Position numbers and translations under genes: made by a program
Part shown: in pieces, positions 1,567 to 16,022 of the stretch
How positions within the stretch are numbered: position 1 is the first letter of the stretch
Layout: each line of letters opens with the position of its first letter
Assembly: GCA_016234485.1 (NCBI GenBank)
Contig: JACRBL010000037.1
Coordinates: 41,597 to 105,596 of the forward strand
Origin: Chloroflexota bacterium
GTDB taxonomy: Bacteria > Chloroflexota > Anaerolineae > Anaerolineales > Villigracilaceae
Length of the DNA: 64,000 bases
Direction: 5' to 3'
The notes under the pieces: generated by a model
The model's input: the letters and a program-made list of their open reading frames with translations, nothing else
The model's database searches: none
Told to the model about the DNA's origin: nothing

Positions 1567-4089
1567 CTAATACTTCAAAATCTTCAACCAATGCAGTTTA
1601 TGATAGATCACCGAGCGGTTGAGATAGGGCGAAATATTCTTCAAAATCTCCTGCCAGGACACGTCGCGTCCATGCACCTGCCTTCGCAGGCGGTTCATCT
1701 CTTTCATGCCGGAGCTTTCCATATGCGCGCTCGTTTTTTGCGCGGCCTGCACGCGGAACGCGCCGAGGAAACGCGGCGCACGCACGATCTTGGCGCCTGC
1801 CTCACGGAAGCGGATGAGTAAATCCCAATCAAGGGCGAATTGGAACGACTCGTCCATCTGGCCGCCCGATTTTTCCCAGATACTGCGCCGCCAGAACAGG
1901 GTCTCCTGTGGCACGTAATCGGCCCACAGGATCACATCGTTATCGTGCGGCGGAAGGATCCAGCGGCCGATCTCGCCGTCGTTCTCGTCAATGATGATGC
2001 GATGCCCATAAATCACGTCCACGTCGGGATGGCGCGTGAAGTAATCGGCTACGTAGTTGAGCGCCCCAGGCAGGAGAATATCGTCCGAATTCAGGTAGGC
2101 CATGATCTCGCCGCTGGTGTGGGCAAAGCCCATGTTGATGGCGTGCGCCTGTCCATCGTCCTTGCGCGATTCGAAATGCGTCAGCCGCGAAAGAAATGGC
2201 TTCATCACCTTCACGGTTGCATCGCGCGAGCCGCCATCTTGAATCACGTACTCCAGATTGGGATAGCCTTGATCCAACACACTGCGCGCCGTGCGCTCGA
2301 TGAACGCGGCCTGATTATAGGAGGGCGTGGTAATGGAAATGCGCGGCGCGTCCTCGGCTTTTATGGACGGGGCGTTGTAATACCGCTTCGGAATATCCAA
2401 AGGAATGGGGGCATGCTGATGCAAAACGCCCACCTTCGGCAGGAAAATACGCCGAATATCGCGCAGCCAGATCGCCGCCCACCGCAACAAGGGAAAAATG
2501 GAAAAACTACGTAACGGCCCGTTGTCCATGCGGTAGATGAACGAAGTCCTGAACTTTTGGATGATCTGTTCCTTCTCCGCCGTCTGGGCCATCAATTGTT
2601 GGTTTTCAGCCAGCAAACGTTCGTTATCCGACCTGGCATGTTCGATTTCCTTTTTGAACTGCTTGTTTTCCGCAACCAGGCGTTTTCGCTCATTTTGCAG
2701 ATCGGAATTTTTCTTTTTCCATTGAGCGACGCGATGAAGATGATCCGCCTGCAACTGTTCAATTTGTTGCAGGTGCGTCAAGTCCATCTGGTTGATCTGT
2801 TGTCGCAGTTGGTGGTTTTCGGCTTCGCTTTGTTGAAGCCTGCCCATGCCATCATTTAACATTTGAATTACCCTCTCTTTTTTCACGAGTTCATCCTGGT
2901 CGCTTTGATGCCGATTTGCCCACGTCTGCATCTCCTGGGCATACGGCAACGAAACAGGATTTTTTCGGAGTCTTGTGGATTTGAGGTGACGCGCCATCAA
3001 TTCACTCCACATGGAACGGGTTTTATCCCAGGAAAATTTTTTCGCCTGGCGGCGTCCTTTTCGGATCAACTCATCGCGCAGGTTCGGCAAATCTTTAATA
3101 AACGCGTTCGCCCAATCTTTCGGGTTGTGCGAATCCACATACAGCGCGGCGCTTCCCCCCACTTCGGGCATGGACGTTAACGGCGCGCAGATGACTGGGC
3201 AATCATTTTGCATGGCTTCCAAAATCGGCATCCCAAACCCCTCATATTCGGAAACAAATAAAAGCGCCTCGGCTCCGCGATAAAGGGACTCCATATCCGC
3301 ATTGGAGACATAGCCCAAATCCAACACGCTCTCGCGTGGAAGGTTGTGGCGCGCGATAAGCAGGTTCAAATAACCTTCATCGTGCCAACCAGTCAGGACA
3401 AGCTTGAGGTCGGAACGGGAGCGCAGGATCTCGCGGAAGGAGCGCAACAGCAATTCGTGACGCTTATGCGGCCAATTGCGGGCAGGATACAAAACATAAG
3501 GCGAGAGGCCGATCTTTCCAAGCGGCGATTGATAATCTCCCGCTTCCACGGGCGCGTCTTGAACGGGAAGGTCGCCCGCCAGCGGAATGACCAGCGTTTG
3601 GGCGCGCTTCAGTCCGATGTGCTTCACCAGGCGATTGCGTGCATCGTCCGAAATGGTGACGACAGTGGAGGCGTTCTTCAATTGCAGATAGATATCACGG
3701 CGTCTTTGCGCTTCGGCGGCTGGGAACAACGCGGGCATATCCAGCGCGAGCGCGTCGGGAATGGACGCGATGTGCGGCGTTTTTTGATACGCCACCCAAT
3801 CGGAAACGGGTTTCATGCCAAACAAGGGGCTGATGATGAGGTCGGGGCGCAAGGTCTCGAAAACTGGCGTCATCCCGGCGTCTGGTAAAACGGGAATTAG
3901 CTCGCCGCCCGAACGCCCCAGCCAGGCGCGGAACTGTCCGCTAAAGCGCCAGCCCACGGCAAAATACACAGTGACTTTTCCCTGCTCGGCCCACTCCGCT
4001 AATAAATTGCAGACAACGTACGCGATGCGGCTAAGACCGCCATTGCGAGGCGGGTCGAGATCCACAAGGTTTACAAGACAAACGCTCAT
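1567..4089 (-). CDS. bifunctional glycosyltransferase: N-terminal GT4 domain, ~130-aa central coiled coil, C-terminal GT2 domain
   Basis: 840-aa ORF. GT4 E-x7-E region is VSEYEGFGMPILEAM. The central heptad-rich Q/E/K/L stretch is QSDQDELVKKERVIQ...QQLMAQTAEKEQIIQKF. GT2 signature is ISITTPSYNQAAFIERTARSVLDQGYPNLEYVIQDGGS plus LNSDD. Confidence 0.85.
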   Translation of the reverse strand: MSVCLVNLVDLDPPRNGGLSRIAYVVCNLLAEWAEQGKVTVYFAVGWRFSGQFRAWLGRSGGELIPVLPDAGMTPVFETLRPDLIISPLFGMKPVSDWVAYQKTPHIASIPDALALDMPALFPAAEAQRRRDIYLQLKNASTVVTISDDARNRLVKHIGLKRAQTLVIPLAGDLPVQDAPVEAGDYQSPLGKIGLSPYVLYPARNWPHKRHELLLRSFREILRSRSDLKLVLTGWHDEGYLNLLIARHNLPRESVLDLGYVSNADMESLYRGAEALLFVSEYEGFGMPILEAMQNDCPVICAPLTSMPEVGGSAALYVDSHNPKDWANAFIKDLPNLRDELIRKGRRQAKKFSWDKTRSMWSELMARHLKSTRLRKNPVSLPYAQEMQTWANRHQSDQDELVKKERVIQMLNDGMGRLQQSEAENHQLRQQINQMDLTHLQQIEQLQADHLHRVAQWKKKNSDLQNERKRLVAENKQFKKEIEHARSDNERLLAENQQLMAQTAEKEQIIQKFRTSFIYRMDNGPLRSFSIFPLLRWAAIWLRDIRRIFLPKVGVLHQHAPIPLDIPKRYYNAPSIKAEDAPRISITTPSYNQAAFIERTARSVLDQGYPNLEYVIQDGGSRDATVKVMKPFLSRLTHFESRKDDGQAHAINMGFAHTSGEIMAYLNSDDILLPGALNYVADYFTRHPDVDVIYGHRIIIDENDGEIGRWILPPHDNDVILWADYVPQETLFWRRSIWEKSGGQMDESFQFALDWDLLIRFREAGAKIVRAPRFLGAFRVQAAQKTSAHMESSGMKEMNRLRRQVHGRDVSWQEILKNISPYLNRSVIYHKLHWLKILKY

Positions 4090-4099: not shown

Positions 4100-5140
4100 C
4101 TATTTACGGGTTGCGTTTTTCAACGCTTCGTCCAGTTTTTGAATGAGTTCGAGTCGTTCCTGCGCGACCTTGCGGAGCATCTCCACTTCCGCGCCTTGGG
4201 CTTGAATGATATTTCGGAGATTTTCCAAACCTGCAGTTTGTTCGTGAATGGTCTTCTGGCGACCCTCCGCGTGGAATTGCATTTCATCTGCGGTTGCGCG
4301 GGCGTTGACCAGAGCCAGGGTTAGCAACCCGGAAAGAGAGGTCTCCAGAGTTTTTTCGCTCTCTTCCTGTGAGAGAATGCCCACCTCGCCCTGCGAAACG
4401 ACCGCGAACATGTTGTAATCGCCAAACGTCATAGGCGCTTCGCTGGAGACGTTCCAGCCGAGTTCGTGGAAGAATTTTTCCAAAGATTGCGTGGAGAAAA
4501 ATCGCATGCGCTGAGGCTCGTCGAAGTTGGGCAGAATCGGATGTTCGGCGAGGAGCAGTTCCTCGAAGGTTTTTTCGCTCTCGAAACAAGGCGTTTGCAG
4601 AAGCAGGATGCCGCCCGGCTTGAGGAGTTCGAGGGCGAGGCGCATCGTTTCGGCGGGATTTTCCATGCGTTCGAGGGAGTTCAGCGCCACGAGCGCGTCG
4701 AGGGAACCTTTTTCGATTTTTTGCGATTCGAACGCGCCTCCCAGAGATTGAACGTCAAATGTCTTTAAGGCAAATTCGGCCAGCGACGCGCCCGCTTCAA
4801 AGCCTGTGGCATTGTAGCCCGCGGCGCGCAGGACGGCCACAAATCCTCCGTGGGCGCTTCCCAGTTCGAAAACGGAGGCGGGAGGCAGGCAAAATTTGAG
4901 CAAGGCTCCCAAAGCGCGCGGGATAAACGTGGACATATCCTTTTGCAGGCGGGCGCGTAACTCGTCCTCTTTCAGGTCAGCGGGGATGCGGCCAAAATGA
5001 TCGGGCGCGGAGACGCGGGCGGGTTCCTCGTCGGGCCAGATTTTTCGGACGAGGCTGTTGCATTTATCGCAGAGCGCGTAATCGGGAGAGTAGTTGAGCA
5101 GGATGGTGTTTCCGCACCAACACGTAGTTTTGGTCGTCAT
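4100..5140 (-). CDS. class I SAM-dependent methyltransferase with N-terminal Cys4 zinc ribbon and C-terminal coiled coil
   Basis: 346 aa. CWCG...CDKC near the N-terminus, SAM motif I VFELGSAHGGF, and a C-terminal ~60-aa coiled coil (ENLRNIIQAQGAEVEMLRKVAQERLELIQKLDEALK). Paralogue of the next gene. Confidence 0.8.
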   Translation of the reverse strand: MTTKTTCWCGNTILLNYSPDYALCDKCNSLVRKIWPDEEPARVSAPDHFGRIPADLKEDELRARLQKDMSTFIPRALGALLKFCLPPASVFELGSAHGGFVAVLRAAGYNATGFEAGASLAEFALKTFDVQSLGGAFESQKIEKGSLDALVALNSLERMENPAETMRLALELLKPGGILLLQTPCFESEKTFEELLLAEHPILPNFDEPQRMRFFSTQSLEKFFHELGWNVSSEAPMTFGDYNMFAVVSQGEVGILSQEESEKTLETSLSGLLTLALVNARATADEMQFHAEGRQKTIHEQTAGLENLRNIIQAQGAEVEMLRKVAQERLELIQKLDEALKNATRK

Positions 5141-5168
5141 AAATGTCCTTTTCGTTCCAGGATTTAAC

Positions 5169-6185
5169 TCAAGGTTTATTCTTTAGGGCCGCGTCCAAAC
5201 GTTCGATCGCTTCGAGGCGTTCCTGCGCGGCGTTGCGAAGAATTTCGATTTCAGCGCTTTGCTGTTGCACGATCTTGAGACGCTCGTCGGCGTGGTGTTG
5301 CAGGTTTTCGGCGCGGTCGTACAGGTCGAGCAGGGCGAGCGCCAGCCGTCCCGAGGGAAGCGCTTGCAAGGCCGCGGCCCGCTCCTCGGTCGGGATGAGG
5401 CGAAGCGGTTCTTTCGTCACCACGGCGAACATGTCGTAATGCGAGAAGATCGCTCTTTCAAAGTGGACGTGTCCCCAGCCTTGGTCGTGGAAAAGTTTTG
5501 CGATGGAGCGCATGGAGAAGAGGTGCAGGTGTTCCTTTTCTTTATACTGAGCCAGGAATGGATGGTTTGTGCGGACGATTTCTTCATGGGATTTTTCGGG
5601 GTCGTAGCACGGCGTCTGGATGAGCATGAGGCCATCGGGTTTGAGGAGGTCGAGGGCGGCGCGCATTGTGCCGACGGGGTCGGGGAGGTGCTCCAATACA
5701 TCCATGTGCGCGATCACGTCGAGCGAGGCTTGGGGGATATTCTGCGCCTCGAGCGGGCCTAGCAATAATTGGGCGTTAAAGGTTTTTTGGGCAAATTCCA
5801 CCAGCCAGGGGCTAAGTTCGAGGCCGGCGGCCTGATAGCCAGCGGCTGTCAGAAAATTAACGAAGCCGCCATGCGCGCTTCCCAATTCCAAAACGGAGGC
5901 GGGAGGAAGGCGGTATTTCAGCAACGTGCGCGTCCAGTATGGTATGCGATCGGTTAAGTCTGCGCGCGTTCGAGCGTCGAGGGATGGATATCCAAAACTT
6001 TCAGGGAGATGTTTGAGGTAATAATCCTTGCTATACAGTTCGCCAGCATCGTCTACGCGGGTTGTGTCTTCCACAGGCCAGGTCTTTAATATCAAAGTAT
6101 CGCACGCCTGGCAATGCCAATAGGTGGGCGAATAGTCTTGCAGGGTGGGGTTTCCGCACCAACACTGGGTTGTTTGTTTCCTCAT
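5169..6185 (-). CDS. class I SAM-dependent methyltransferase with N-terminal zinc ribbon and C-terminal coiled coil (paralogue of 4100-5140)
   Basis: The track ORF 5169-6314 is trimmed to the internal ATG at 6185 (MRKQTTQCWCGN...), which gives an ATGA overlap with the upstream gene stop at 6182. Motif I is VLELGSAHGGF. C-terminal coiled coil is ERLKIVQQQSAEIEILRNAAQERLEAIERLDAALK. Confidence 0.8.
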   Translation of the reverse strand: MRKQTTQCWCGNPTLQDYSPTYWHCQACDTLILKTWPVEDTTRVDDAGELYSKDYYLKHLPESFGYPSLDARTRADLTDRIPYWTRTLLKYRLPPASVLELGSAHGGFVNFLTAAGYQAAGLELSPWLVEFAQKTFNAQLLLGPLEAQNIPQASLDVIAHMDVLEHLPDPVGTMRAALDLLKPDGLMLIQTPCYDPEKSHEEIVRTNHPFLAQYKEKEHLHLFSMRSIAKLFHDQGWGHVHFERAIFSHYDMFAVVTKEPLRLIPTEERAAALQALPSGRLALALLDLYDRAENLQHHADERLKIVQQQSAEIEILRNAAQERLEAIERLDAALKNKP

Positions 6186-7441
6186 TGTTGTCCAGGATTC
6201 TGACGCCGTTCCAGCGACCACGCGGCCGCGCGGTGGATATCGCCGGCCAGTTCGTCCACGAGTAACTCCGCGGAATTTAATCGAAGATGATGGGCATCGA
6301 AAAAGCCGTCCCACCGCATCTGGCTGATCGGTTCAAAATAAGTTAGATCTCGATAAAACACGTTGGGGTTTCTTTTTACCAGATTCGTCATGTAGGCGTC
6401 AAATATTTTTTCGCAGTGGATATAACGAGGGTTGTTTTTATCGCTGATATCAAGGTAATCTGCGTTGAGAGGGCTTCTATAAAAGAGGAGGGAAAAATTG
6501 TTTTCCTCGGCGAACTCTGCCATCTTTTCCAGTTGTCGCATTCCTTCTGAATCCAATCGGTTGCACGTTTTACTTTGGTCTATTGTCCCAGAAAACGCTC
6601 GCAGTGCGGTTGGGTACGTTGCTTTCGCCAAATCATCTCGGATGCCTGTGCCATCCGGTAGAAACGTCCATGCGGGCGGCCTGAGGTAGAGGCGCTCGTA
6701 GGCCAATTGATAAATCATATCTGAACCCGCTTGCATGCTGAGAGTATCCTGAAGGGTGAAGTCAGCGATGATTAATTGCTGATCCAGGTCCAGGTAGGGC
6801 ATGGCGGAAAGCGGCATCGGCCAACGCTGGATATTCGGTCCCAGCCCCAGGATTTCCACCATAAACACAAGAGGGGGATTCTCTGGCTGGGATGACGTTA
6901 TGAGGCGCTCAAATGCCAGAAAATCAAACGGGCCTCCGCCGCTCACGGCCATGTTGAATGCGTTGAATCCCGTTTTTTGGAGAACGTAGGATGAAGACAC
7001 GGAAAAGGTTCTGGAAGAGCCGAAAATAATCACTTCCGGCGGCGCGCTCAATTGCGAATATAAATCCAATTTTTGCTCGCGCACAGAAGCAGGGTTAAAC
7101 ATGCTGGAGGCGCCATAGCGGAAGAAATGCCAGGGAAAAATGCTATGCGGATTTTCATAGACGATCAGCGCGGTAAATGGCAGGACGATTGCCAGAAATG
7201 AAAAACCCCACCATCGAATGAGCGCCTTTGAACGGGCGACCTGTTGGGCGGTTCCGCTCGAAAACAAGAAAAAGATGAGCATGAATAACAGGAAAATGAT
7301 TCGGCTGATATTTTTGAATACCCGGTCGAATGTGCCATAGTAGACTCGTTCTGGATGCTCAAGGAGCGCCGACGGAGAGTGGTAATGCGCCAAATATATT
7401 ATTAATCCAATAAAGACAAGTAAAAAAAACAACTTTTTCAT
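6182..7441 (-). CDS. membrane-anchored DltD-like / SGNH-like protein (putative glycan O-acyltransferase partner)
   Basis: 419 aa with an N-terminal TM helix plus a second hydrophobic stretch. IIFGSSRTFS resembles the GSS(E) catalytic-serine motif of DltD-type proteins. Same operon as the FAAL and carrier protein. GC is clearly lower than the flanks (hand count 28-42% on sample lines). The functional call is tentative. Confidence 0.5.
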   Translation of the reverse strand: MKKLFFLLVFIGLIIYLAHYHSPSALLEHPERVYYGTFDRVFKNISRIIFLLFMLIFFLFSSGTAQQVARSKALIRWWGFSFLAIVLPFTALIVYENPHSIFPWHFFRYGASSMFNPASVREQKLDLYSQLSAPPEVIIFGSSRTFSVSSSYVLQKTGFNAFNMAVSGGGPFDFLAFERLITSSQPENPPLVFMVEILGLGPNIQRWPMPLSAMPYLDLDQQLIIADFTLQDTLSMQAGSDMIYQLAYERLYLRPPAWTFLPDGTGIRDDLAKATYPTALRAFSGTIDQSKTCNRLDSEGMRQLEKMAEFAEENNFSLLFYRSPLNADYLDISDKNNPRYIHCEKIFDAYMTNLVKRNPNVFYRDLTYFEPISQMRWDGFFDAHHLRLNSAELLVDELAGDIHRAAAWSLERRQNPGQQ

Positions 7442-7450
7442 TGTTGATTC

Positions 7451-8326
7451 TCACTTGGGTTTTTGCGCCACAAATACCGCGCCCGCGCCAACGGAGGGGT
7501 TGGGCGAAAGTTTAATGAGGCCGCGCAAGATATCCCCGATTCCATCCGAATAGTTTTGAAGTTGCATGAGGTAACCATGAAGCGGTTGCCCAAGTTCCGC
7601 GCCGCCCTCCAGTTGAAAGTGCCAGGCTTCATCAAAGAACATGAATATGCGGCCAAAGGGTTCGGGCGCGATGGGCGTATGCTCCAAAATTTGGAAGCCC
7701 GCGTTTTCCATGCGCTTCATCCACTCTTGCGACGGGAAGGGGTTGCGATAATGGTGGTAGTTTTCATAATCGCGCCAAATTTCCTGGCCGCGTTTTTCAG
7801 CCTGAAAAAGCCTGGAGAGCAGAGGCATCATGCCCCATTCCACAATTTTATCGGTGACGACGCTGGAGATGAAAAGGCCGCCAGGTTTGAGAACACGAAA
7901 GGCTTCGCGCAACACTTCGTCAATGTGATCCATGTGTTCGAGCGCGCAGTTGGAAAAAAGGCTGGCGAAGGAATGATCTTCAAACGGCAATTGATGCGCG
8001 GGGACTTGATGCACGTCCTTGTAAACGCCCGAGGCGCGCGCGTTTTCGCAGGCGGCCTGGTCATAGTCAATGCCCACCACGTCCGTCACCTGCGGCCACA
8101 AAAGGCGGAAGAAGCGTCCGTCGCCGCAAGCCAGATCGAGGACGGGTTCGGTCAACGCGTGGTTGCGATAGGCGGCCACTTCCCAGGCGCGCCAAAGGAC
8201 AATGGGGGCGACGCGCGGATAGATGGCGTCCATTTCGCGGGCGGCTTGCAGGATTTCCGACTCATTCAGGAATCGCGTCACAACAGTCATTCGGTTCTTT
8301 CCTCGACGGGATAGCGGGTTCACCAA
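7451..8326 (-). CDS. class I SAM-dependent methyltransferase (Methyltransf_11-like)
   Basis: 291 aa. Motif I is VLDLACGDGRF and the post-I region is VVGIDYD. The track start at 8326 is TTG and overlaps the upstream stop (TTGGTGA). An alternative start is the ATG at 8290, preceded by GAGGAAAG. Confidence 0.8.
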   Translation of the reverse strand: MVNPLSRRGKNRMTVVTRFLNESEILQAAREMDAIYPRVAPIVLWRAWEVAAYRNHALTEPVLDLACGDGRFFRLLWPQVTDVVGIDYDQAACENARASGVYKDVHQVPAHQLPFEDHSFASLFSNCALEHMDHIDEVLREAFRVLKPGGLFISSVVTDKIVEWGMMPLLSRLFQAEKRGQEIWRDYENYHHYRNPFPSQEWMKRMENAGFQILEHTPIAPEPFGRIFMFFDEAWHFQLEGGAELGQPLHGYLMQLQNYSDGIGDILRGLIKLSPNPSVGAGAVFVAQKPK

Positions 8327-9048
8327 CCCAGGCCTGATTCGTAGCCCGTGGCAATCAACAGCGGTCCGTACTTTTCCTTAAATTCCTTCTTCACCTTATC
8401 GGTAAAGTGATTTTTCCAATCGCCTGAAATGCCCTTGCGCTCATGCGATTGGACATCCTCCGCGCCGCGTTTTCGCCCTGCGCTCAATTTTTCAAACTGA
8501 TTGGCATTCACCACTTCGCGAAAGCGCTCGCGCGAGACAGCCAGTTGGCATTGCTCCAACAGGATTTGCTCAAAGATTGCATGGTCATTTTGCAGTAAAT
8601 CTTCGTATTTCCAGATTGTTTCTTCGCCATCCAGCCAAGAGGTTTGAATGGCGGCGCAACGAGGCAACCACTCATTGAGCATATAAAGGAGCCCATCTTC
8701 CTCGTTGACCGAGTCCAACACGGAGCGCCATTTTACGATTTCTTCGGCAATGGCCTGATGGCTGAACTTGACGCTAAAGTATACGGATACGAGCGTATCG
8801 CGCAAGTCACGGATGATGACAAAGCGTTTCCAGTTCTGTGGAAGGGGTACGCTATAAAATTGTTCTTTCGTCACATAGACGGTTGGATACACCCTGCCAG
8901 CCTGGAGCGGGTCTTTGAGGAATTGCGTTTCGTAAACCTGCGGGGTCACGATCAGGTCGGGAACGCAGGCTTCGAGAATCTTTCGCACCCATTGGGAGCC
9001 GGCTTTCCAATGCGTCACGTGAAATATGGTGGGGAGAGGCGTATTCAC
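8320..9048 (-). CDS. sulfotransferase family protein (paralogue 1 of 5, most divergent)
   Basis: 242 aa. 5'-PSB-like FHVTHWKAGSQWV, 3'-PB-like IIRDLRDTLVS, and C-terminal ERKGISGDWKNHFT, which matches the Sulfotransfer_1 hallmark RKGxxGDWKNxFT. GTG start overlaps the upstream stop (GTGA). Confidence 0.8.
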   Translation of the reverse strand: MNTPLPTIFHVTHWKAGSQWVRKILEACVPDLIVTPQVYETQFLKDPLQAGRVYPTVYVTKEQFYSVPLPQNWKRFVIIRDLRDTLVSVYFSVKFSHQAIAEEIVKWRSVLDSVNEEDGLLYMLNEWLPRCAAIQTSWLDGEETIWKYEDLLQNDHAIFEQILLEQCQLAVSRERFREVVNANQFEKLSAGRKRGAEDVQSHERKGISGDWKNHFTDKVKKEFKEKYGPLLIATGYESGLGW

Positions 9049-9845
9049 CAGTTCAAGTCCTTTTCGTAGCCCGTTTCGATCAAGACCTGGCCGAAGCGTT
9101 GTTTAAAGGCCTGCGTGATCTGGGGCGTGAAGTAATTGCGCCAGTCGCCAGAGATGCCTTTTCGGAAATGGGAGGAAACGTCTTCCTCGCCCGGCTGGCG
9201 TCCTGCACGGCTTACAAAGGAATTGCGGCTGATAATCTCGTGCAAGTGAGACGAGGGAACCTCAATCGCACAATGCGCGACAATCTTTTCAAACTGGCCG
9301 ATCTCGTCGGCGATGATGTCTTCATAGCGGACGAGCAGGGCTTCTCCGCGCTGGCAGATCGGCAACCAGGAGGTTTGTATCCTGGCCTGGTAGGGCATTT
9401 CTTTCGAGGCGCTGTTCGTGCACAAGTAGAGGAAGCCTTCCTCAAGTTCCATCTCGTTAAGCCGACGGTGGCCTTCTTCCACTGTTTTTGAAATAATGGC
9501 GTGGCTGACCTTCAAACTAAAATAGAGCGAAACCAGCGTATCGCGCAAGTCGCGGATCACGACGAAGGTTTTTACGGGATATTTTTGCTCCACGAAATTT
9601 TGCCAATTTTGCCCGGCGGGAGAATCGGCTGGGGGCTGGGAGTCCGGCCAAAGCGTGGATTCGAAGCGATCACGCGGCGCGTAAACCGTCGGGTAGATCA
9701 TCCCCGGCTGGATGGGGTCATCATAGAATTGCGCCACCTGCACACGCGGTTTAACGATGCGCTCGGGGGCGCATTCATTCAGTATCTGGTACACCCACTG
9801 TGAACCCGATTTGACGTGCGTAACGTGAAAGATAGTCGGTTCCAT
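9045..9845 (-). CDS. sulfotransferase family protein (paralogue 2)
   Basis: 266 aa. FHVTHVKSGSQWV, VIRDLRDTLVSLYFSLKVSH, FRKGISGDWRNYFT. One-nt TAATG overlap with the upstream gene. Confidence 0.85.
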   Translation of the reverse strand: MEPTIFHVTHVKSGSQWVYQILNECAPERIVKPRVQVAQFYDDPIQPGMIYPTVYAPRDRFESTLWPDSQPPADSPAGQNWQNFVEQKYPVKTFVVIRDLRDTLVSLYFSLKVSHAIISKTVEEGHRRLNEMELEEGFLYLCTNSASKEMPYQARIQTSWLPICQRGEALLVRYEDIIADEIGQFEKIVAHCAIEVPSSHLHEIISRNSFVSRAGRQPGEEDVSSHFRKGISGDWRNYFTPQITQAFKQRFGQVLIETGYEKDLNW

Positions 9846-10669
9846 TACCAGTCCAGGTCTTTTTCGTATCCTGTTTCGATCAGGAGTTGCCCGTAGGCCT
9901 GTTTGAATTTTTCCTTGAGACGGTCGGAAAAATGGTTGCGCCAGTCGCCAGAGATGCCTTTGCGATAATGGGAGGAGGCGTCCTCTTCGCCGCGTTTGCG
10001 TCCCGCCTTGTTGGAGAAGGAGTTTTTAGCGACGATCTCTTCCAGACGCGATTTTGAAATGTCCATTTCGCAATATTCGGCGATCTTCGCGAACCAGGCC
10101 TGTTCGTCGGCGATCAGGTCTTCGTAGCGGACGAGCAACGCGCCGCCCTGGTCGCACACGGGCAACCAGGAGCGTTGAATTTCGGCTTGAATGGGCATGG
10201 CCTGTTCGGAGCGGCTTCCTTGCACGTCGCCGCAGAGGTAAAGCAAACCTTGCTCGATGTCCAAGTCGTTGAGTTTCTGGCTTCCTTCGGTCATAATATC
10301 GGAGAGCATGACGTGGCTGACCTTGAGGCTGAAGTAGTAGGAAACCAGCGTGTCGCGCAAATCGCGCAGGACGACAAACGTTTTGATGGGGCGATCCTGC
10401 TGGACAAAATTGCGATAGTTCTGCGAGGCAGGCGCGTAGAACGATTCGGGCGGCGACGTGGGGCGGAGCGCGGCTTCAAATCGGCCGCGCGCGACGTAGA
10501 CGGTGGGGTAGATCATCCCCGGCAGGATCGAGTCGCCGAAGAAGTGCAACATCCTCATGCGCGGGCGAACAATGCGCCGCGGGGCGGCTTCCAGCAAAAC
10601 CTGGTAGACCCATTGCGAGCCGGATTTTACATGGGTGATGTGAAAGATGGTTGGAAGTTGGTTCACCAA
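9845..10669 (-). CDS. sulfotransferase family protein (paralogue 3)
   Basis: 274 aa. FHITHVKSGSQWV, VLRDLRDTLVSYYFSLKVSH, YRKGISGDWRNHFS. TTG start (or GTG at 10666) lies within the TTGGTGA overlap with the upstream stop. Confidence 0.85.
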   Translation of the reverse strand: MVNQLPTIFHITHVKSGSQWVYQVLLEAAPRRIVRPRMRMLHFFGDSILPGMIYPTVYVARGRFEAALRPTSPPESFYAPASQNYRNFVQQDRPIKTFVVLRDLRDTLVSYYFSLKVSHVMLSDIMTEGSQKLNDLDIEQGLLYLCGDVQGSRSEQAMPIQAEIQRSWLPVCDQGGALLVRYEDLIADEQAWFAKIAEYCEMDISKSRLEEIVAKNSFSNKAGRKRGEEDASSHYRKGISGDWRNHFSDRLKEKFKQAYGQLLIETGYEKDLDW

Positions 10670-11484
10670 TTGAGATCCTTTTCGTAACCGGTGTCAATCA
10701 AGACCTGCCCATAGCGCCGTTTAAAGAAGGCTTTGAGCGGCTCGGTGAAATGATTTTTCCAATCGCCGGAGATGCCTTTTCGATAATGCGAGGACACGTC
10801 TTCCTGGCCAGGCTTGCGGCCGGTGCGATTTGCAAAAGAGTTGCTCTTAATGATCTGATGCAATCGGAACCTGGAAATATTGATTTCGCAATGCTCCACG
10901 ATCTTTTCAAATTGACCGACCTCGTCAGCCAGCATGTCTTCATAACGCATCAGAATGGATTCGCCGCTCTGGCAGATAGGCAACCAGGAGGATTGAATCC
11001 TGGCCTGCACCGGGGTACGCTGTTTCAACACCCACAGGAAGCCATCTTCGAAACTCATCTCATTCAATTCCACGCGTCCCTTCGAGATTTGATCGGAGAG
11101 TTCAGCGTGGCTGACCTTGATGCTGAAATAAAGCGACACCAGCGTATCGCGCAGATCGCGAATCACCACAAAGGTTTTAAAGGGCGCTTTTTTGACGGTG
11201 AAGTTGTACCAGTTCTTTACGCTAGATTCATCCTTGTCCGAATATTGATAGGTCGCCGCGTCCAGGTCAACTTTCGGGAACATCGTATCCTGAAATTTTT
11301 GGTACGGCACATATACAGTGGGATACACGCCACCGGGGATGATGGGGTCGCGATAGAACTGTTCGAGGAGAACATGCGGTTGAACATATCGTTCCGGGGC
11401 GCACTCCTGCAAGACCTGCAAAATCCATTGCGAGCCGGCCTTATAGTGAGTGATGTGAAAAACAGTGGGAAGCGTCTCTACCAT
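10663..11484 (-). CDS. sulfotransferase family protein (paralogue 4)
   Basis: 273 aa. FHITHYKAGSQWI, VIRDLRDTLVSLYFSIKVSH, YRKGISGDWKNHFT. 7-nt ATGGTAG overlap with the upstream gene. Confidence 0.85.
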   Translation of the reverse strand: MVETLPTVFHITHYKAGSQWILQVLQECAPERYVQPHVLLEQFYRDPIIPGGVYPTVYVPYQKFQDTMFPKVDLDAATYQYSDKDESSVKNWYNFTVKKAPFKTFVVIRDLRDTLVSLYFSIKVSHAELSDQISKGRVELNEMSFEDGFLWVLKQRTPVQARIQSSWLPICQSGESILMRYEDMLADEVGQFEKIVEHCEINISRFRLHQIIKSNSFANRTGRKPGQEDVSSHYRKGISGDWKNHFTEPLKAFFKRRYGQVLIDTGYEKDLNW

Positions 11485-12266
11485 TCCAGATTCTCCTCAT
11501 AGCCCATGTCAATCAAAACCTGGCCAAATTGCTTCTTAAATTCGGTCGAGATCTTCTCGGTAAAGTGATTTTTCCAATCGCCCGAAATCCCCTTGCGAAA
11601 ATGGGAGGAAACGTCCTCCTGTCCGGGCTTGCGGCCAGTCTGCTTCGCAAAGGAACAGCGCGTAACGATCTCGTGCAGGCGGGCTCGGGGAATGTCCATT
11701 TCGCAGTAATCCATGATCTGTTCGTACTGCCCGATCTCGTCGGCGATCATGTCCTCGTAGCGGAACAGGCGCGCCTCGCCGCGTTTACTGGCCTCCAGCC
11801 AGGAAGTCTGGATGCGCGCGATCAATTTACCGTTCCCCGCGCCGAAGAGATGCAAAATGCCATCTTCAAAGCTCAATTCGCTCAAGACGCGATGCTCGTT
11901 GGCGACATTATTGGAAATAATCTCATGGCTGACCTTCAAACTAAAATACAGCGAGATCAAGGTATCGCGCAGGTCGCGTACCACCACAAAGGCCTTCCAG
12001 GGCGCTTTGCCTTCCACGAAATTCTGCCAGTTTTGAAAAGCGGACACGTGAGGAGCGGGCTTCACCTTGGGAATAAATGTGGGCGCGAAGCGATCATACG
12101 GCACATAGACGGTGGGGTACACCTTGCCCGGCAGGATGGGGTCTTCGTAAAACTGCGCCACCTTCACGCGCGGCTTCACAATCCGTGTTGGGGTACATTC
12201 CTCCAAAATTTGATACACCCACTGCGAACCTGATTTGACGTGCGTAATATGAAAGACGGTGTTCAT
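11478..12266 (-). CDS. sulfotransferase family protein (paralogue 5)
   Basis: 262 aa. FHITHVKSGSQWV, VVRDLRDTLISLYFSLKVSH, FRKGISGDWKNHFT. Confidence 0.85.
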   Translation of the reverse strand: MNTVFHITHVKSGSQWVYQILEECTPTRIVKPRVKVAQFYEDPILPGKVYPTVYVPYDRFAPTFIPKVKPAPHVSAFQNWQNFVEGKAPWKAFVVVRDLRDTLISLYFSLKVSHEIISNNVANEHRVLSELSFEDGILHLFGAGNGKLIARIQTSWLEASKRGEARLFRYEDMIADEIGQYEQIMDYCEMDIPRARLHEIVTRCSFAKQTGRKPGQEDVSSHFRKGISGDWKNHFTEKISTEFKKQFGQVLIDMGYEENLEW

Positions 12267-12363
12267 TTCACCAATTCATGCCTTTCTCGTAACTTGTGAA
12301 TAACTTCGATTTGGCAACACAACCATAATTTCAAACTCACCCTGCGGAGCAGCCGACAGTCCG

Positions 12364-13221
12364 CTAATGAGCGTTTTCAGCCAGTCCAAGATCATAATTC
12401 GGTTCCGGATATCCGTAATAATCCATCATTGGGCGATGGGTTTCCCAAAGCAGTCGCAATTGCTCCTTGGAATAATTCTCTTCCCATTCGCCAGTTTTGC
12501 CCTGGCGCGTCAGTTTCGGGCGCATCTCATGGTAATACTCGAACGAGCGCAACTCCCTGGAAAGAACCGGCATCCCCAGAAAAGCGGCCAACGTATCGCA
12601 AAAAGCCAACTCGCCCGCGGCAATGTCCTCATACTTTGCGAGGTAATAGCGTGGCCCGAGCGGAGGAACCACCTTCAACCACTTCTGGTGATACTCGTTC
12701 CAGTTATCGAACACGTCTTCTTTAATAACCGTTGTGAGCTCGGTACTTTTGCGATTCTTGATATCCTGCTTGAAATTGTAATAAGACCAGATCACCGCGC
12801 CCGGGTTGCGAACCAAATGGATCACATATTCACCAGGGAGATATTCCTGATATGGCCCAAAATGCGTCTTGAGAAAATAGACCTGGCTATCCTCCGCCAG
12901 CGCCTTGCGGACTTCCATTTCCTTCACCACGTTCCGGCAACCATGCGCCAGGAAATAACAATCGCCCGAAATTTCTGGGATGCGGTATCCCAGCATCCAG
13001 GGCTTCAACGCGGCGGGATAGGGTTTCAACTGCTCTTCGGTCAGGTCGAAAAGCGGAAGCGAAAACCACTTGCGGGCGGTCTGCGCGCTTTTTGTGCGGG
13101 CGATCTCGCTGGTTTTGTGCATCACGTGGATGTTCGTGGTGGGACGTTTAAATTGATTCCCCAACAGAGACTGTAGCCAAAAGTTGCCACTGCGAGGATA
13201 CGATGCCACATAAATAATCAT
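12364..13221 (-). CDS. sulfotransferase family protein (distinct subfamily)
   Basis: 285 aa. N-terminal SYPRSGNFWL resembles the PKSGTTW PAPS 5'-phosphosulfate loop. Also HLVRNPGAVIWSYY (3'-PB-like) and RQGKTGEWEENYS. AAGGAG lies 7 nt upstream of the ATG. Confidence 0.75.
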   Translation of the reverse strand: MIIYVASYPRSGNFWLQSLLGNQFKRPTTNIHVMHKTSEIARTKSAQTARKWFSLPLFDLTEEQLKPYPAALKPWMLGYRIPEISGDCYFLAHGCRNVVKEMEVRKALAEDSQVYFLKTHFGPYQEYLPGEYVIHLVRNPGAVIWSYYNFKQDIKNRKSTELTTVIKEDVFDNWNEYHQKWLKVVPPLGPRYYLAKYEDIAAGELAFCDTLAAFLGMPVLSRELRSFEYYHEMRPKLTRQGKTGEWEENYSKEQLRLLWETHRPMMDYYGYPEPNYDLGLAENAH

Positions 13222-13247
13222 GCCGGGCTCCTTATTTCGTCATTGTA

Positions 13248-14651
13248 CTATACCTGCTCATCACGGAGCGTTTGCATGTGGCTTTCCCCGGGCAGGTTGC
13301 TTACGCCGCTGTGCAAGAGTTCGAGTTCCTCGCCGTGCCGCGCCGTCACCGCCACGGCAAAGGCCCCCTCCAAACGCCAAATGCGCCGGACTGCGTCCTT
13401 CTCGCCCCGATGCCCAAACTTCTCCAAGCGCGAAGAAACGTCGCCCGTCAAGGTGGTGCATTCGAGATTGAAAACATAATTGCCGGGAGCCAGCCCAAGT
13501 GTGATGGTTTGTTGATAACGAACGGTCTCGCCGCGTGCGACAGACACCGGAGCGCTCATTCGATTTTGGACTGAATTTTTTCCATGCACCAGCAAATTCC
13601 GGGGGTCGCGGATTTCCACATTGACCACAGGCGTTCCAATATCCTCTTTCAATTGGAATTCGCAATAAAGATGCAAACGATCTCCCTGCTTGAACACTGA
13701 CTCGGGCTGACCCTCGTCATTCAACACCGCCATGCGGGTGATGACACTGCGAGACTTGCCGGTCGCTTTCGGGAAGGACGTGAAGCGAAACGCCTCCGCC
13801 CGCGGCCACGCCATGGACCCTTCGGCGGGCGCGACCAGCGCGGGCAGAGAGGCCGGCAATTGAGGCGCGGCTTCGTCGTCGTCCAATTCCATTCTTCGGA
13901 CAGCGTCGGCATTTTTTTCGCCGCGCACCTGCATATATAAACGAATCCCCTCCATGGGGTCGCCGTCGAACGCTTTTTCTCCCTGGTTGATAACGATCAC
14001 ACGATTGCAATAGCGCTGAACCACAGCCATGCTATGCGTAACCAGCAGGATGGAAGTTTTCTGTTCGATCAATTCAGCCAGGCGGGCAAAACACTTCACC
14101 TTGAAGAAGATATCCCCCACCGCCAAGACCTCGTCCAATATCAATATGTCGGTATCCATGAAGGCAAACATCGAGAACGAAAGGCGCGTCCTCATGCCTG
14201 TGGAATAGGTTCGCAATGGCTGTTCAAAGAAATCGCCTAATTCGGAAAATTCCCTGATGCGTTCCATGCGCTCCTGCACGTATCCATCGGGGAAGCCCAT
14301 CAGTTGCCCCGAGCGAATCACGTTTTCGCGCCCGGTCAGGTCCTGGTCGGTTCCGCCGGTCAATTCAAGGATGGACAGGACGCGGCCGCGCGACTCGTAC
14401 GAGCCTTCGGTGGGACGTAAAACGTCGGTGATCACCCGTAGCAGGGTGCTTTTCCCCGCGCCATTTGGGCCGACAATGCCAACAAACTCCCCTTTTTTCA
14501 CATCAAACGAGATGCCATTAAGAGCCCAGAAATCACGATGATAGGAGCGTTTGCCTAAAAAGAGCCACTCTTTCAGAATACCCATCGGGCTGGGATAAAT
14601 CTTGAAGCGCTTCTTAAGGTCACGCACCTCCAAAACATTGTTCTCGTTCAC
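13248..14651 (-). CDS. wzt: polysaccharide ABC transporter ATP-binding protein with C-terminal substrate-binding-like extension (Wzt/TagH type)
   Basis: 467 aa. Walker A GPNGAGKST, signature YSTGMRTRLSF, Walker B ILILDE. A ~200-aa C-terminal extension follows the NBD. GTG start in a GTGA overlap with the permease stop. Confidence 0.85.
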   Translation of the reverse strand: MNENNVLEVRDLKKRFKIYPSPMGILKEWLFLGKRSYHRDFWALNGISFDVKKGEFVGIVGPNGAGKSTLLRVITDVLRPTEGSYESRGRVLSILELTGGTDQDLTGRENVIRSGQLMGFPDGYVQERMERIREFSELGDFFEQPLRTYSTGMRTRLSFSMFAFMDTDILILDEVLAVGDIFFKVKCFARLAELIEQKTSILLVTHSMAVVQRYCNRVIVINQGEKAFDGDPMEGIRLYMQVRGEKNADAVRRMELDDDEAAPQLPASLPALVAPAEGSMAWPRAEAFRFTSFPKATGKSRSVITRMAVLNDEGQPESVFKQGDRLHLYCEFQLKEDIGTPVVNVEIRDPRNLLVHGKNSVQNRMSAPVSVARGETVRYQQTITLGLAPGNYVFNLECTTLTGDVSSRLEKFGHRGEKDAVRRIWRLEGAFAVAVTARHGEELELLHSGVSNLPGESHMQTLRDEQV

Positions 14652-15430
14652 ATCAAATCCTTTACTTCAGCGCCAAGTCGTTTCGACACCAGCGAACCGA
14701 GCAGTCCAAATACAAACGTCCAGGCGAGCATGTGAATCCATGCTTCGGGTGATGGAAGTTTTCCATTTAAGTACACATCGCGAATGGAGGAGAGAAAGTA
14801 GTAGGGCGGATTAAATTGCATGATCGGACGCGCCCATTCCGGCATCAGGTCGAGAGAATAATTAATGGGCAGAGTCCAACGCCAGAGCTGGACCAGCACG
14901 CCCAAGATCTCCCCCACATCGGGGAAAAAGACGCGCAGATGCGCTACGATCAACGAGACGCCAAATCCCAGCGCGACCAACAAAAACGCGAGGACCGGAA
15001 GGATCAACATGCTCCACGAGGGCGAATTGCCAAAAGCGATGTTCACGGGAATGAGGATGATCGTATAAATGACCAGGGTCATAAACGCAATCAACGACTC
15101 TTTGGCGATGAACACATCCGTGGAAACCGCCAGCCGCCGCAAATAAACAGCCGAGGTGTTGAGCGCGTTACTGCCGTGCATGATCAAACTGGAAAACGCC
15201 AGCCAGGGAAACAATCCGCACAGCAAAAAGATCGTGTAAGACCCGCTCCGTCCATCGCCCGCGCGCAGGCCGATCAGGTAGGAAAAAACAAACGAATAAA
15301 GGGCCGCCTCAAGGATCGGGTTAACGATGAACCAAAACACCCCCAGCACCGATCCCGCGTATCGGAACCGAAACTCGCTCCAGAAGGAACCGAATAAAAA
15401 ACGACGGTGGACAAACAGGTTTTTCAGCAT
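14648..15430 (-). CDS. wzm: ABC-2 type polysaccharide transporter permease (Wzm type)
   Basis: Six predicted TM segments and an N-terminus MLKNLFVHRRFLFGSFWSEFRFRY, typical of the ABC-2 family. The track ORF extends to a TTG at 15472. I prefer the ATG at 15430, which sits 7 nt after a TATACC -10-like box. Confidence 0.8.
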   Translation of the reverse strand: MLKNLFVHRRFLFGSFWSEFRFRYAGSVLGVFWFIVNPILEAALYSFVFSYLIGLRAGDGRSGSYTIFLLCGLFPWLAFSSLIMHGSNALNTSAVYLRRLAVSTDVFIAKESLIAFMTLVIYTIILIPVNIAFGNSPSWSMLILPVLAFLLVALGFGVSLIVAHLRVFFPDVGEILGVLVQLWRWTLPINYSLDLMPEWARPIMQFNPPYYFLSSIRDVYLNGKLPSPEAWIHMLAWTFVFGLLGSLVSKRLGAEVKDLM

Positions 15431-15508
15431 ATCCAGGGGTATACCCCAGCCTCCAAAAGATACAGAGCGCAACGGCTGAACCCCGTGCGCTTCTGCATGC
15501 TCCGAACG

Positions 15509-15541: not shown

Positions 15542-15544
15542 AGG

Positions 15545-16016: not shown

Positions 16017-16022
16017 GGGGGG

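Follow-up and report, generated by a model that had tools for sequence, protein, structure and literature searches.

What does a bacterium do with six sulfotransferase genes in a row, five of them from one family, and on what do the encoded enzymes act? These questions are raised by a locus in an uncultured Chloroflexota bacterium, probably one of the Anaerolineae, within a stretch of 64,000 nucleotides that was analyzed as a whole and is here called the window. The six open reading frames lie at 8320-13221 on the minus strand, just where a first-pass annotation of the bare sequence had put them, and 6/6 pass the Pfam model PF00685 (Sulfotransfer_1), with 47.9-78.6 bits against a gathering score of 22. 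They are ST1 (8320..9048, 242 aa, 47.9 bits), ST2 (9045..9845, 266 aa, 62.8 bits), ST3 (9845..10669, 72.6 bits), ST4 (10663..11484, 273 aa, 64.8 bits), ST5 (11478..12266, 262 aa, 78.6 bits), and ST6 (12364..13221, 285 aa, 51.4 bits, with a further 28.4 bits for PF13469). ST3 has 273-274 aa, its start being TTG at 10669 or GTG at 10666; a separate gene caller, given the same DNA, chose the GTG and hence 273 aa.

ST1 to ST5 carry the shared motifs that the annotation had listed, FH(V/I)TH.K(S/A)GSQW, YPTVY, RDLRDTL(V/I)S.YFS.K.SH, RYED, and SH.RKGISGDW(K/R)N(H/Y)F. Among them, ST1 is of a short, widespread “THWKAGSQW” type, without the 20-40 aa insertion. ST6, correctly assigned to another subfamily, is 14-22% identical to ST1-5 in protein sequence and has motifs of its own (PSB loop YPRSGNFW, canonical catalytic LKTH, 3'-PB VRNPGAVIWS, and RQGKTGEW).

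The genes around the array suggest what the acceptor might be. From their spacing, the genes at positions 1-15472 appear to form one operon for a glycan handled by a Wzm/Wzt ABC transporter. All are on the minus strand, tightly packed and often overlapping, in the order wzm, wzt (with Wzt_C), ST6, ST5 to ST1, methyltransferase, a 419-aa protein, two further methyltransferases, a GT4/coiled-coil/GT2 glycosyltransferase, carrier protein, and AMP-ligase. The wzm gene (14648..15472; start at 15430 according to the gene caller) encodes the ABC-2 type permease of the exporter (Pfam ABC2_membrane, 38.2 bits against a cut-off of 26.9). It overlaps, at their shared end, the ABC ATPase gene wzt (13248..14651; Pfam ABC_tran). 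The C-terminal part of Wzt (about aa 282-454, roughly nt 13290-13808) is a carbohydrate-binding domain (Wzt_C, 55.3 bits against 30.4), and its best solved relatives are chains of Wzt O-antigen ABC transporters (8dku/7k2t/6amx, E=1e-62).

On the other side of the array lie three SAM-dependent methyltransferase genes, MTa (7451..8290, 279 aa by gene call; Pfam Methyltransf_11/25/23), MTb (5169..6185, 338 aa by gene call; Methyltransf_23), and MTc (4100..5140; Methyltransf_23). Between the first two sits the gene for the 419-aa protein (6182..7441), which has a hydrophobic N-terminus and no match in Pfam, NCBIfam or PDB, and so no assigned family; the related loci L010 (three matches) and L106 have weak homologues (26-29% identity) on the downstream side of the glycosyltransferase, and none is in the L083 cluster. 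The putative polymerase, an 840-aa glycosyltransferase (1567..4089; Pfam Glycos_transf_1 and Glycos_transf_2), combines a GT4-type (about aa 73-347) with a GT2 (about aa 582-774) domain, separated by a coiled-coil-like spacer (about aa 417-523); the spacer is a 107-residue stretch without Pro or Gly, 77% of it E/K/Q/R/L/A/M/D/N. Then follow an 82-aa carrier protein with the phosphopantetheine site GLIDS (1287..1535; PP-binding, 24.2 bits against 20.8) and, truncated at the edge of the window, an AMP-binding (adenylating) enzyme whose first 430 aa are present (1..1290; E=9e-48). In the related loci L083 and L085, an MBOAT acyltransferase comes next, while the carrier slot is filled by an unannotated 87-aa ORF in L083 and by a weak PP-binding match in L085.

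This placement, absent from the first-pass annotation, makes a glycan the likely substrate of the sulfotransferases. PAPS-synthesis genes were not seen among the scanned ORFs of the window, nor an initiating polyprenol-phosphate glycosyltransferase in the cluster, nor Wzx, Wzy, PCP or OPX genes at positions 1-15472.

The arrangement is, of course, not peculiar to the window. The gene order wzm-wzt-ST-MT-MT-GT forms a cassette that turns up again in Chloroflexi, in Methylocaldum and deltaproteobacterial MAGs, and on many metagenome contigs. Its minimal conserved form has, after wzt, one ST1-type gene and then methyltransferase and glycosyltransferase genes. MTa directly follows the ST1-type gene in L004, L124, and L134, and a more distant sulfotransferase in L005/6. 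Relatives of ST6 adjoin wzt in L083, L086, and L154, and are found also on two contigs without a visible wzt (L098 and L106). The sulfotransferase copies per related locus are mostly one or two; the five plus one of the window, found again in L083, is the extreme. The expectation that such expansion is unusual for bacteria thus held when the relatives were counted. When the synechan (xss) cluster of Synechocystis was described, its possession of as few as two sulfotransferase genes was called unprecedented for a bacterial polysaccharide cluster (PMC8205485). The synechan cluster likewise joins sulfotransferases from distinct subfamilies with glycosyltransferases, but it is cyanobacterial, uses the Wzx/Wzy pathway, and has two such genes, where the window has Wzm/Wzt and five tandem paralogues with a sixth.

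The best explanation, to which we would give a probability of roughly 60%, is that the array serves an operon for a Wzm/Wzt cell-surface glycan as its sulfation module, and that every paralogue has an acceptor specificity of its own. Here, the GT4/coiled-coil/GT2 enzyme would assemble the glycan, linked to a polyprenol carrier, on the cytoplasmic side of the membrane. The six sulfotransferases and three methyltransferases would decorate it while still in the cytoplasm, with its supply of PAPS and SAM, so that PAPS-dependent sulfation of the lipid-linked glycan would precede export. Wzm/Wzt would then export the glycan after the C-terminal binding domain of Wzt had checked the finished chain, and the carrier-protein/AMP-ligase/MBOAT module downstream would probably acylate it. 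This would be a more comfortable hypothesis if the repeat made by a two-domain polymerase offered more than a few free hydroxyls; six enzymes for sulfation and three for methylation, with acylation on top, seem excessive for a simple repeat.

The closest characterized systems hint at a further possible role for sulfate. The O-antigen systems of E. coli O9a and K. pneumoniae O3, O7, and O12 (WbdA/WbdD or WbbB) share with the window Wzm, a Wzt that ends in a carbohydrate-binding domain, a glycosyltransferase of several domains that includes a coiled-coil spacer, and cytoplasmic group-transfer enzymes encoded beside the transporter, methyltransferases among those of the window. In the characterized systems, the Wzt_C domain binds a terminal cap, and the terminator is placed distally on a coiled-coil protein (PMC11231755). 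By analogy with the methyl-phosphate cap made by WbdD in O9a, sulfate, alone or with methyl, might be a chain-terminating cap that licenses export. The ST1-type enzyme, the ST6-type enzyme or both would then act at the non-reducing terminus only, and the C-terminal domain of Wzt would read the sulfated end.

The idea of such a cap is raised by fusions, met repeatedly elsewhere, that join these enzymes to methyltransferases, to binding domains of the Wzt type, and to GT2 polymerases with a coiled coil. Members of the ST1-5 family occur as Wzt_C-ST, GT2-Wzt_C-ST, ST-MT, ST-MT-CC-GT2, and ST-CC-GT2 proteins. The ST1 type, the only sulfotransferase of the minimal cassette, is the one joined to Wzt_C elsewhere; in many cases such a domain, 31% identical to that of the window, is part of the same protein or comes directly before it. 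The GT2 half of the 840-aa enzyme (494-840) shares 51% identity with the GT2 of two proteins in which the module distal to the coiled coil is a sulfotransferase (P0133, ST-CC-GT2) or a sulfotransferase and a methyltransferase (P0193, ST-MT-CC-GT2). In Ornatilinea (L010), that distal module is an ST6-type domain, at the N-terminus, plus a Sulfotransfer_3 domain, in a ST/ST/coiled-coil/GT2 protein.

Thus, in its homologues, the window's system resembles the O9a type even in having the modifying enzyme distal to the coiled coil. The window itself, however, has a GT4 domain there and no sulfotransferase. Further, its anionic group transferase is of the PAPS type rather than a kinase, and six are present, which is superfluous for one cap. 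Nor does variation in the Wzt binding domain track that in the ST6 slot above the background level; dividing binding-domain identity by ATPase-domain identity gives 0.70 both for L083, whose ST6 is 41% identical, and for L086, whose ST6 is 66% identical. A sulfated terminator was not reported in the literature searched. A sulfate cap is therefore a tentative idea, possible but doubtful, and it overlaps with the sulfation module preferred here, as the remaining paralogues could still decorate the backbone.

Chloroflexi are not generally regarded as LPS makers, and the product of the window is therefore probably not an O antigen. In gene order and domain description, the window resembles the O-antigen cluster of Aeromonas salmonicida A450, where a single 216-aa gene with a sulfotransferase domain (“Hyp”), of no assigned role, directly follows wzt and precedes the gene for a large glycosyltransferase of the multi-domain WbbB type; the O antigen itself was found to have no sulfate (PMC4483657).

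Either role requires, of course, that the proteins be enzymes. ST5 has the fold of the cytosolic SULTs (PF00685; SULT1D1, SULT2A1, SULT1E1). Its AF2 model (pLDDT 94, pTM 0.90) matches their structures at E about 1e-9 and TM 0.53-0.65 (Foldseek), even though the sequence identity is just 15-22%. Shared with them are the 5'-PSB loop with its Lys, the 3'-PB Arg/Ser, and the RKGxxGDWKNxFT loop. The PAPS-binding residues K11/G13/S14/W16 (5'-PSB), R97/D98/R100/D101/S105 (3'-PB), and R224/K225/G229/D230/W231 are invariant in 41 diverse family members, ST1-5 included.

Loss of catalytic or PAPS-binding residues had been named as the mark of pseudo-enzymes. The PAPS motifs are intact, but the canonical catalytic His is a Tyr in 5/5 copies. 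By hmmalign, His99 of human SULT2A1 falls on the second Tyr of YPTVY, invariant in the family; in the ST5 model, the predicted strand 49-53 followed by Tyr54 corresponds by topology to the K-x-H strand. The K[ST]H motif is not conserved, its three residues occurring anywhere in the protein in just 43/233 members. Some or all of ST1-5 might then be PAPS- or glycan-binding scaffolds, regulators or lectin-like subunits of an assembly complex. This is unlikely. The Tyr belongs to the whole family, of at least 635 clusters at E<=1e-30 (a clade for which NCBIfam has no model), and so reflects a stable design rather than the decay of single copies, which weakens the case for pseudo-enzymes. Invariance extends to the 5'-PSB catalytic Lys and the 3'-PB Ser, and every copy is under strong purifying selection. 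Further, His6, His114, His222, Tyr50, and Tyr54 are invariant, with His9 in at least 90% of members, and several of these could act as the base. Nor is the canonical His obligatory; mouse SULT2A8, solved and active, has Leu there and uses another His (PMC8134075). Its solution is not the one reused, since that His48 (KSGTHW) corresponds to Gln15 in ST1-5 (KSGSQW).

The kinship with SULTs that act on steroids and phenols, small molecules both, together with the genes for a carrier protein and an adenylating enzyme, might suggest a non-glycan acceptor (lipid, small molecule or peptide) that merely shares the operon. This is very unlikely, as synteny with wzm/wzt, methyltransferases, and glycosyltransferase recurs across phyla, covalent fusions to Wzt_C and GT2 domains are known in the family, and the neighbouring genes include no core for polyketide, NRPS or lipid biosynthesis. 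A glycan remains the predicted acceptor.

Why, then, five? The first-pass annotation held the paralogues to be old, diverged, and retained, and offered either different specificities or dosage. The copies are far from near-identical. They share 49-63% of their amino acids pairwise, dS between them is saturated (about 2-3.8 or undefined), and the DNA repeat families within the array are just 60-78% identical, with no long near-identical tracts, which makes ST1-5 old rather than assembly-derived. Neither identity comparison, dN/dS nor DNA repeats gave a trace of gene conversion. The recurring junctions that had been described are real: 5/5 proteins end in Trp-stop, with ATGGTAG at ST5/ST4 (the ST4 start sitting within the ST5 stop), TTGGTGA at ST4/ST3, TAATG at ST3/ST2, and GTGA at ST2/ST1. 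TTGGTGA appears again between ST1 and MTa, where the gene caller puts the MTa start 12 codons downstream. A further ST1-5-type paralogue has left a relic of its 3' end (12267..12298, minus strand; ...TSYEKGMNW-stop), which overlaps with the start of ST5 (GTGAAATG). This relic brings a 32-nt junction repeat family (D6) to five members, being in register at 75% identity, and matches the C-termini of ST2 and ST4 at E=0.003-0.004 (tblastn).

The same array, with its genes in identical order, is found on an independent metagenome contig, L083, and this excludes an assembly artefact or recent duplication. The L083 spacer holds the same relic (ESCYEKGMDW-stop) and more colinear fragments. Orthologues of ST1-5 in L083/L084 are one-to-one and colinear, at 82-93% identity, against 48-65% between paralogues. 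Each copy is under purifying selection, with dN/dS against its orthologue of 0.055-0.116 at dS 0.57-0.88; against L083, the values are 0.055 for ST5 (93% identical) and ST4 (91%), 0.096 for ST3 (90%), and 0.116 for ST2 (82%). Positions fixed within each orthologue group and differing between groups concentrate outside the PAPS-binding segments, 24/36 in ST5 residues 31-90 and 121-150, and 0/36 in the 5'-PSB loop, 3'-PB helix or RKG loop.

Dosage arrays are usually young, homogeneous, and variable in copy number, and the idea that five copies simply supply more of the same reaction, however well it suits tandem, same-strand, translationally coupled genes with conserved junctions in a family duplicated in tandem independently in L010, L011, L132, and L151, is least credible for copies so diverged, free of conversion tracts, and paired with orthologues that keep paralogue-specific residues in another lineage. 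Specificity is thus favoured over dosage on these sequence comparisons. ST2-ST5 would have arisen by tandem duplication within Chloroflexi, before the lineages of the window and L083 split, whereas ST1 belongs to a clade of its own within the family, a widespread one that also includes homologues from Methylocaldum, deltaproteobacteria, and Chloroflexia. Purifying selection has kept the copies since, most simply because each would sulfate another hydroxyl or residue, by sub- or neo-functionalization. If this is true, the bacterium would carry a heavily sulfated surface glycan, of a kind rarely documented in bacteria outside the cyanobacteria.

The first-pass annotation placed six genes between 8320 and 13221, five of them same-strand genes for paralogous sulfotransferases (ST1 to ST5) and the sixth (ST6) of a different subfamily. 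Six open reading frames are indeed found there, all on the minus strand: ST1 at 8320-9048 (242 aa), ST2 at 9045-9845 (266 aa), ST3 at 9845-10669 (274 aa; a second, independent gene call for this DNA uses a GTG start at 10666, giving 273 aa), ST4 at 10663-11484 (273 aa), ST5 at 11478-12266 (262 aa), and ST6 at 12364-13221 (285 aa). The proteins ST1 to ST5 are 49-63% identical to each other, and the motif blocks quoted for them are recovered in their alignment. ST6 is 14-22% identical to these five, which bears out its separate assignment.

The five paralogues were also said to end in a tryptophan codon followed directly by a stop. This holds for all five, with junctions reading ATGGTAG, TTGGTGA, TAATG, and GTGA. 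Here, the conserved C-terminal codons (encoding GYEKDLNW) are purine-rich and lie where the ribosome-binding site of the next gene is expected, implying that the junction is part of the duplicated unit. The arrangement would fit translational coupling. A scan for promoters and terminators gave counts no higher than those in shuffled controls; only one site, at 15966-15938 and upstream of rplS, strongly resembles a promoter.

Open reading frames of 130-283 aa on the plus strand (8644-12233) shadow each sulfotransferase gene; since those genes are paralogues, their shadows recur too. In the independent gene call (Logan contig L001), this strand has no gene there (for example, at 10651-11502 or 11529-12233). 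The plus-strand frames look like antisense shadows, by-products of codon usage, and are not counted as genes.

All six proteins match the Pfam family Sulfotransfer_1 (PF00685), with scores of 47.9-78.6 bits against a gathering cut-off of 22. In ST1 to ST5, the 5'-phosphosulfate loop reads TH.K(S/A)GSQW, and K11, G13, S14, and W16 (ST5 numbering, as for the family residues below) are invariant in 41 family members that are 42-66% identical to ST5. In the same 41 sequences, R97, D98, R100, D101, and S105 of the 3'-phosphate motif, RDLRDTL(V/I)S, are invariant, as is the RKGxxGDW loop, which reads RKGISGDW in all of ST1 to ST5. The ST6 counterparts are YPRSGNFW, with arginine replacing lysine, VRNPGAVIWS, and RQGKTGEW. 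An AlphaFold2 model of ST5, built from the 41-sequence alignment, has a pLDDT of 94.1 and a pTM of 0.90. When it is compared with the PDB by Foldseek, all of the top 50 matches are sulfotransferases, nearly all of them cytosolic SULTs (probability 1.00, E of about 1e-9, TM 0.53-0.65). ST1 to ST6 are predicted to be PAPS-dependent sulfotransferases. By profile search, the ST1-5 family comprises 635 clusters (50% identity) at E<=1e-30, and 3413 at E<=1e-10.

The canonical catalytic histidine is not conserved in ST1 to ST5. A fragment of human SULT2A1, aligned to a hidden Markov model of short ST1-type sequences, places His99 opposite the invariant second tyrosine of YPTVY. The ST5 model agrees with this mapping, since its strand at 49-53, with Tyr54 next, corresponds in topology to the K-x-H strand. 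With hhalign, a profile-profile alignment to the ST6 type covered the C-terminal half alone, and phmmer and hmmsearch alignments to SULTs in the PDB placed K-T-H in a variable insertion, with low confidence. ST6 keeps the canonical catalytic LKTH.

A SULT can, of course, work with another base. Mouse SULT2A8, which is active, has leucine at the canonical position and uses His48 of its PSB loop, which follows the lysine (KSGTHW; PMC8134075). This solution is excluded for the ST1-5 family, where the equivalent of His48 is glutamine; the catalytic base must therefore be another residue. Candidates are the invariant His6, His114, His222, Tyr50, and Tyr54, together with His9, which is found in at least 90% of members. 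As SULT2A8 makes clear that the canonical histidine is not universal in the superfamily, its loss lowers confidence in the mechanism without excluding membership. The missing histidine is, as far as the alignments reach, a property of the family, not the decay of single copies.

The array lies in a tightly packed string of genes on one strand. This runs rplS, wzm, wzt, ST6, ST5 to ST1, a methyltransferase, a 419-aa protein, two more methyltransferases, an 840-aa glycosyltransferase (GT840; 1567-4089, minus strand), an 82-aa phosphopantetheine carrier protein, and an AMP-binding enzyme that is truncated at the edge of the window. The overlapping wzm and wzt genes together encode a transporter pair (Pfam ABC2_membrane and ABC_tran), and Wzt ends in a Wzt_C carbohydrate-binding domain (residues 298-399; 55.3 bits against 30.4). 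The closest solved relatives of Wzt (8dku, 7k2t, and 6amx; E=1e-62) are deposited as "ABC transporter"; we take them to be the O-antigen WzmWzt exporter. GT840 consists of a GT4-type domain, a 107-residue charged spacer that is free of proline and glycine and rich in E, K, Q, and L, and a GT2 domain. The spacer looks like a coiled coil.

Unlike an xss-like Wzx/Wzy cluster for a sulfated exopolysaccharide, this cluster has among its genes no Wzx flippase, no Wzy polymerase, and no PCP/OPX pair. No initiating polyprenol-phosphate glycosyltransferase was seen by Pfam in window positions 1-17000, and no PAPS-synthesis genes among the window ORFs scanned. The genes elsewhere in the scanned window are unrelated to the array. 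One of these, at 56982-59792 on the plus strand, encodes a 936-aa restriction-modification enzyme of type IIG/IIL that belongs to the MmeI family (MmeI_N, helicase spacer, MTase, TRD).

The carrier protein and AMP-binding enzyme downstream of the glycosyltransferase form a Dlt-like module, at 1-1535 (minus strand) in the window, at 13659-17017 in L083 (another metagenome contig with the same 5+1 array), and at 14834-18791 in L085 (a further metagenome contig). An MBOAT acyltransferase comes next in L083 and L085, and L085 also has a weak DUF1574 protein. This suggests that the exported glycan is also acylated or aminoacylated outside the membrane. The 419-aa protein (6182-7441, minus strand), which has a hydrophobic N-terminus and sits between methyltransferases, has no match in Pfam, NCBIfam, or the PDB, and is missing at the equivalent position in L083. 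Weak homologues (26-29% identity) follow the glycosyltransferase in L106 and in L010, an Ornatilinea locus with three tblastn matches. A DltD/DUF1574-like role for this protein is only a guess from context.

The best-supported reading of the locus is that the six enzymes would sulfate a lipid-linked glycan at the cytoplasmic face, ahead of export by Wzm/Wzt, and that the five paralogues would differ in acceptor specificity. Here, it is the substrate, the timing, and the regiospecificity that we infer.

How usual is such an array? The check on copies in related genomes covered 80 loci of species-representative genomes and 80 of metagenomes, and found that the ST1-5 family usually has a single copy. 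Of the metagenome contigs that reach 5 kb, 22 carry a single sulfotransferase and 9 carry two; the maximum among genome loci is 3-4 copies, in a Chloroflexia MAG. L085 and L086, both Logan/JGI contigs, have 3-4 sulfotransferase genes. The 5+1 arrangement is found only in the window and in L083/L084 among the loci surveyed. What recurs is a cassette of wzm, wzt, an ST1-type gene, two methyltransferases, and a glycosyltransferase, seen in Chloroflexi, in several metagenome contigs, and in Methylocaldum sp. GT1BB, whose ST1-type protein is 60% identical. Methylocaldum sp. GT1BB and Leptolyngbya sp. PCC 7375 are candidates for cultured strains with this minimal cassette. The deltaproteobacterial MAGs have a more distant relative in its sulfotransferase slot.

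In some family members the connection to export is covalent. A Wzt_C-type domain, 31% identical over 177 residues to the C-terminal domain of the window's Wzt, is often fused to, or found directly before, an ST1-type domain. Further architectures are GT2-Wzt_C-ST, MT-ST, ST-MT, and ST-ST (where ST is a sulfotransferase and MT a methyltransferase domain). Two proteins have a coiled coil, one as ST-coiled coil-GT2 (P0133) and the other as ST-MT-coiled coil-GT2 (P0193), with GT2 halves that are 51% identical to residues 494-840 of GT840. In the Ornatilinea sp. MAG locus L010, one ORF of 1108 aa (5027-8353) begins with a sulfotransferase of the ST6 type, followed in order by Sulfotransfer_3, a long stretch that resembles a coiled coil, and a GT2 homologous to the C-terminus of GT840. 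This resembles the architecture of WbdD and WbbB, with the place of the terminator taken by sulfotransferases. Through such fusions, both types of sulfotransferase are physically linked to the polymerase and to the module with which the export pathway recognises its glycan.

They also invite a second reading, in which the sulfate ends the chain. In the characterised Wzm/Wzt systems whose Wzt has a binding module, that module reads a chain-terminating cap, and a coiled-coil ruler has the terminating enzyme at its distal end (PMC11231755; PMC3482155). In homologues with the same GT2, the module distal to the coiled coil is ST, ST-MT, or ST-ST. Given this position and the fusions to Wzt-type modules, sulfate, alone or with methyl, may be a terminator. 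The window itself argues otherwise. The distal module of GT840 is a GT4 domain, and six enzymes are more than one cap needs.

A third point comes from testing whether ST6 would make the cap: the ST6 slot does not co-vary with the binding domain of Wzt beyond background. Between the window (13248-14651) and L083 (1352-2755), the ATPase domain of Wzt is 91% identical and its C-terminal binding domain 64%; the proteins in the adjacent ST6 slot are 41% identical, against 82-93% for ST1 to ST5. The recognition domain and the ST6 slot are, judged from this pair, the fast-evolving parts of the locus. No report of a sulfated terminator was found in the literature searched, where the sole co-occurrence was an unexplained sulfotransferase-domain gene beside wzt in Aeromonas salmonicida (PMC4483657).

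A wider version would have a large SULT-fold clade, with tyrosine for histidine, install sulfate (with or without methyl) as a terminating, export-licensing Wzm/Wzt cap in many phyla, to be read by Wzt-type modules that in some cases share a polypeptide with the sulfotransferase. Within this lineage of Chloroflexi, the clade would have expanded to five or six specialised copies making a polysulfated, glycosaminoglycan-like surface polymer. As a whole, we hold this to be tentative and rather unlikely.

The annotation took the duplications to be old and retained, and the saturated dS between paralogues agrees, as do the DNA repeat families of the array, which are just 60-78% identical. Together with the 49-63% protein identity, these exclude a recent or assembly-derived duplication. 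Independent assemblies from Logan runs (L001 and L002) also contain the DNA of the window, at 100% identity.

The suggested phylogeny, built with related homologues by neighbour-joining, pairs each window paralogue with its L083 orthologue, with bootstraps of 100 for each of ST2 to ST5 and 92 for ST1. A lineage-specific burst is rejected on these trees, where ST1 falls in a separate, widespread clade. ST2 to ST5 fall in a mostly Chloroflexi clade, and other genomes have independent tandem duplications. Deeper nodes, including the order of duplication, are poorly supported.

L083 comes from another sample (with a fragment in L084) and has the window's order: rplS, wzm, wzt, its own ST6-slot gene, ST5, ST4, ST3, ST2, ST1, three methyltransferases, and the glycosyltransferase. 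Each of its paralogues matches a single window paralogue at 82-93% identity and the rest at 47-65%. For the five orthologous pairs, dN/dS is 0.055-0.116 and dS 0.57-0.88, matching the neighbouring wzm, wzt, methyltransferase, and glycosyltransferase genes. Shared order, one-to-one orthology, and low dN/dS imply that all five copies predate the split of the lineages, and that each has been kept by purifying selection.

At least one further copy was lost. The 97-nt spacer between ST6 and ST5 (12267-12363) holds the relic of a 3' end (12267-12298, minus strand), reading TSYEKGMNW-stop and overlapping the ST5 start as real junctions do. The 235-nt spacer in L083 (3704-3938) keeps the same relic (ESCYEKGMDW-stop), with colinear decayed fragments matching about residues 194-228 of ST4. 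The relic implies that the array evolved by birth and death.

That the copies merely supply dosage is made unlikely by their age, their one-to-one orthology, the purifying selection on each, and the lack of conversion tracts. Acceptor specificity, as proposed in the best-supported reading, is where the paralogues may differ. There are 36 alignment columns fixed within each orthologue group and differing among at least three groups; 24 of these lie in ST5 residues 31-90 and 121-150, which by topology would border the acceptor site of SULTs. The 5'-PSB loop, the 3'-PB helix, and the RKG loop contain none of the 36.

Bacterial polysaccharide clusters with sulfotransferases have been described before. 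The synechan cluster, of the Wzx/Wzy type, has two sulfotransferases, and the same study noted such genes in cyanobacterial ABC-type clusters too (PMC8205485). Recent papers, this one included, describe bacterial sulfated polysaccharides as reported exclusively in cyanobacteria. Three features go further than these precedents: the 5+1 array is conserved in a Wzm/Wzt operon of Chloroflexi, the active site of the family is non-canonical, and family members are recurrently fused to export machinery.

Sulfated polysaccharides are usually seen as a speciality of animals, algae, and cyanobacteria. The locus predicts, in silico and from uncultured organisms, a Chloroflexi surface glycan with strong sulfation and methylation. 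Its sulfotransferases belong to a widespread clade, with at least 635 clusters (50% identity, E<=1e-30), that is integrated with Wzm/Wzt export systems in different phyla. Should the enzymes be active, they would be a naturally diversified set of glycan sulfotransferases with an unusual active site, of possible use for making glycosaminoglycan-like polymers. If sulfate is a terminator, the polymerase-terminator model of ABC-transporter-dependent glycan assembly would gain a chemical class that is new to it.
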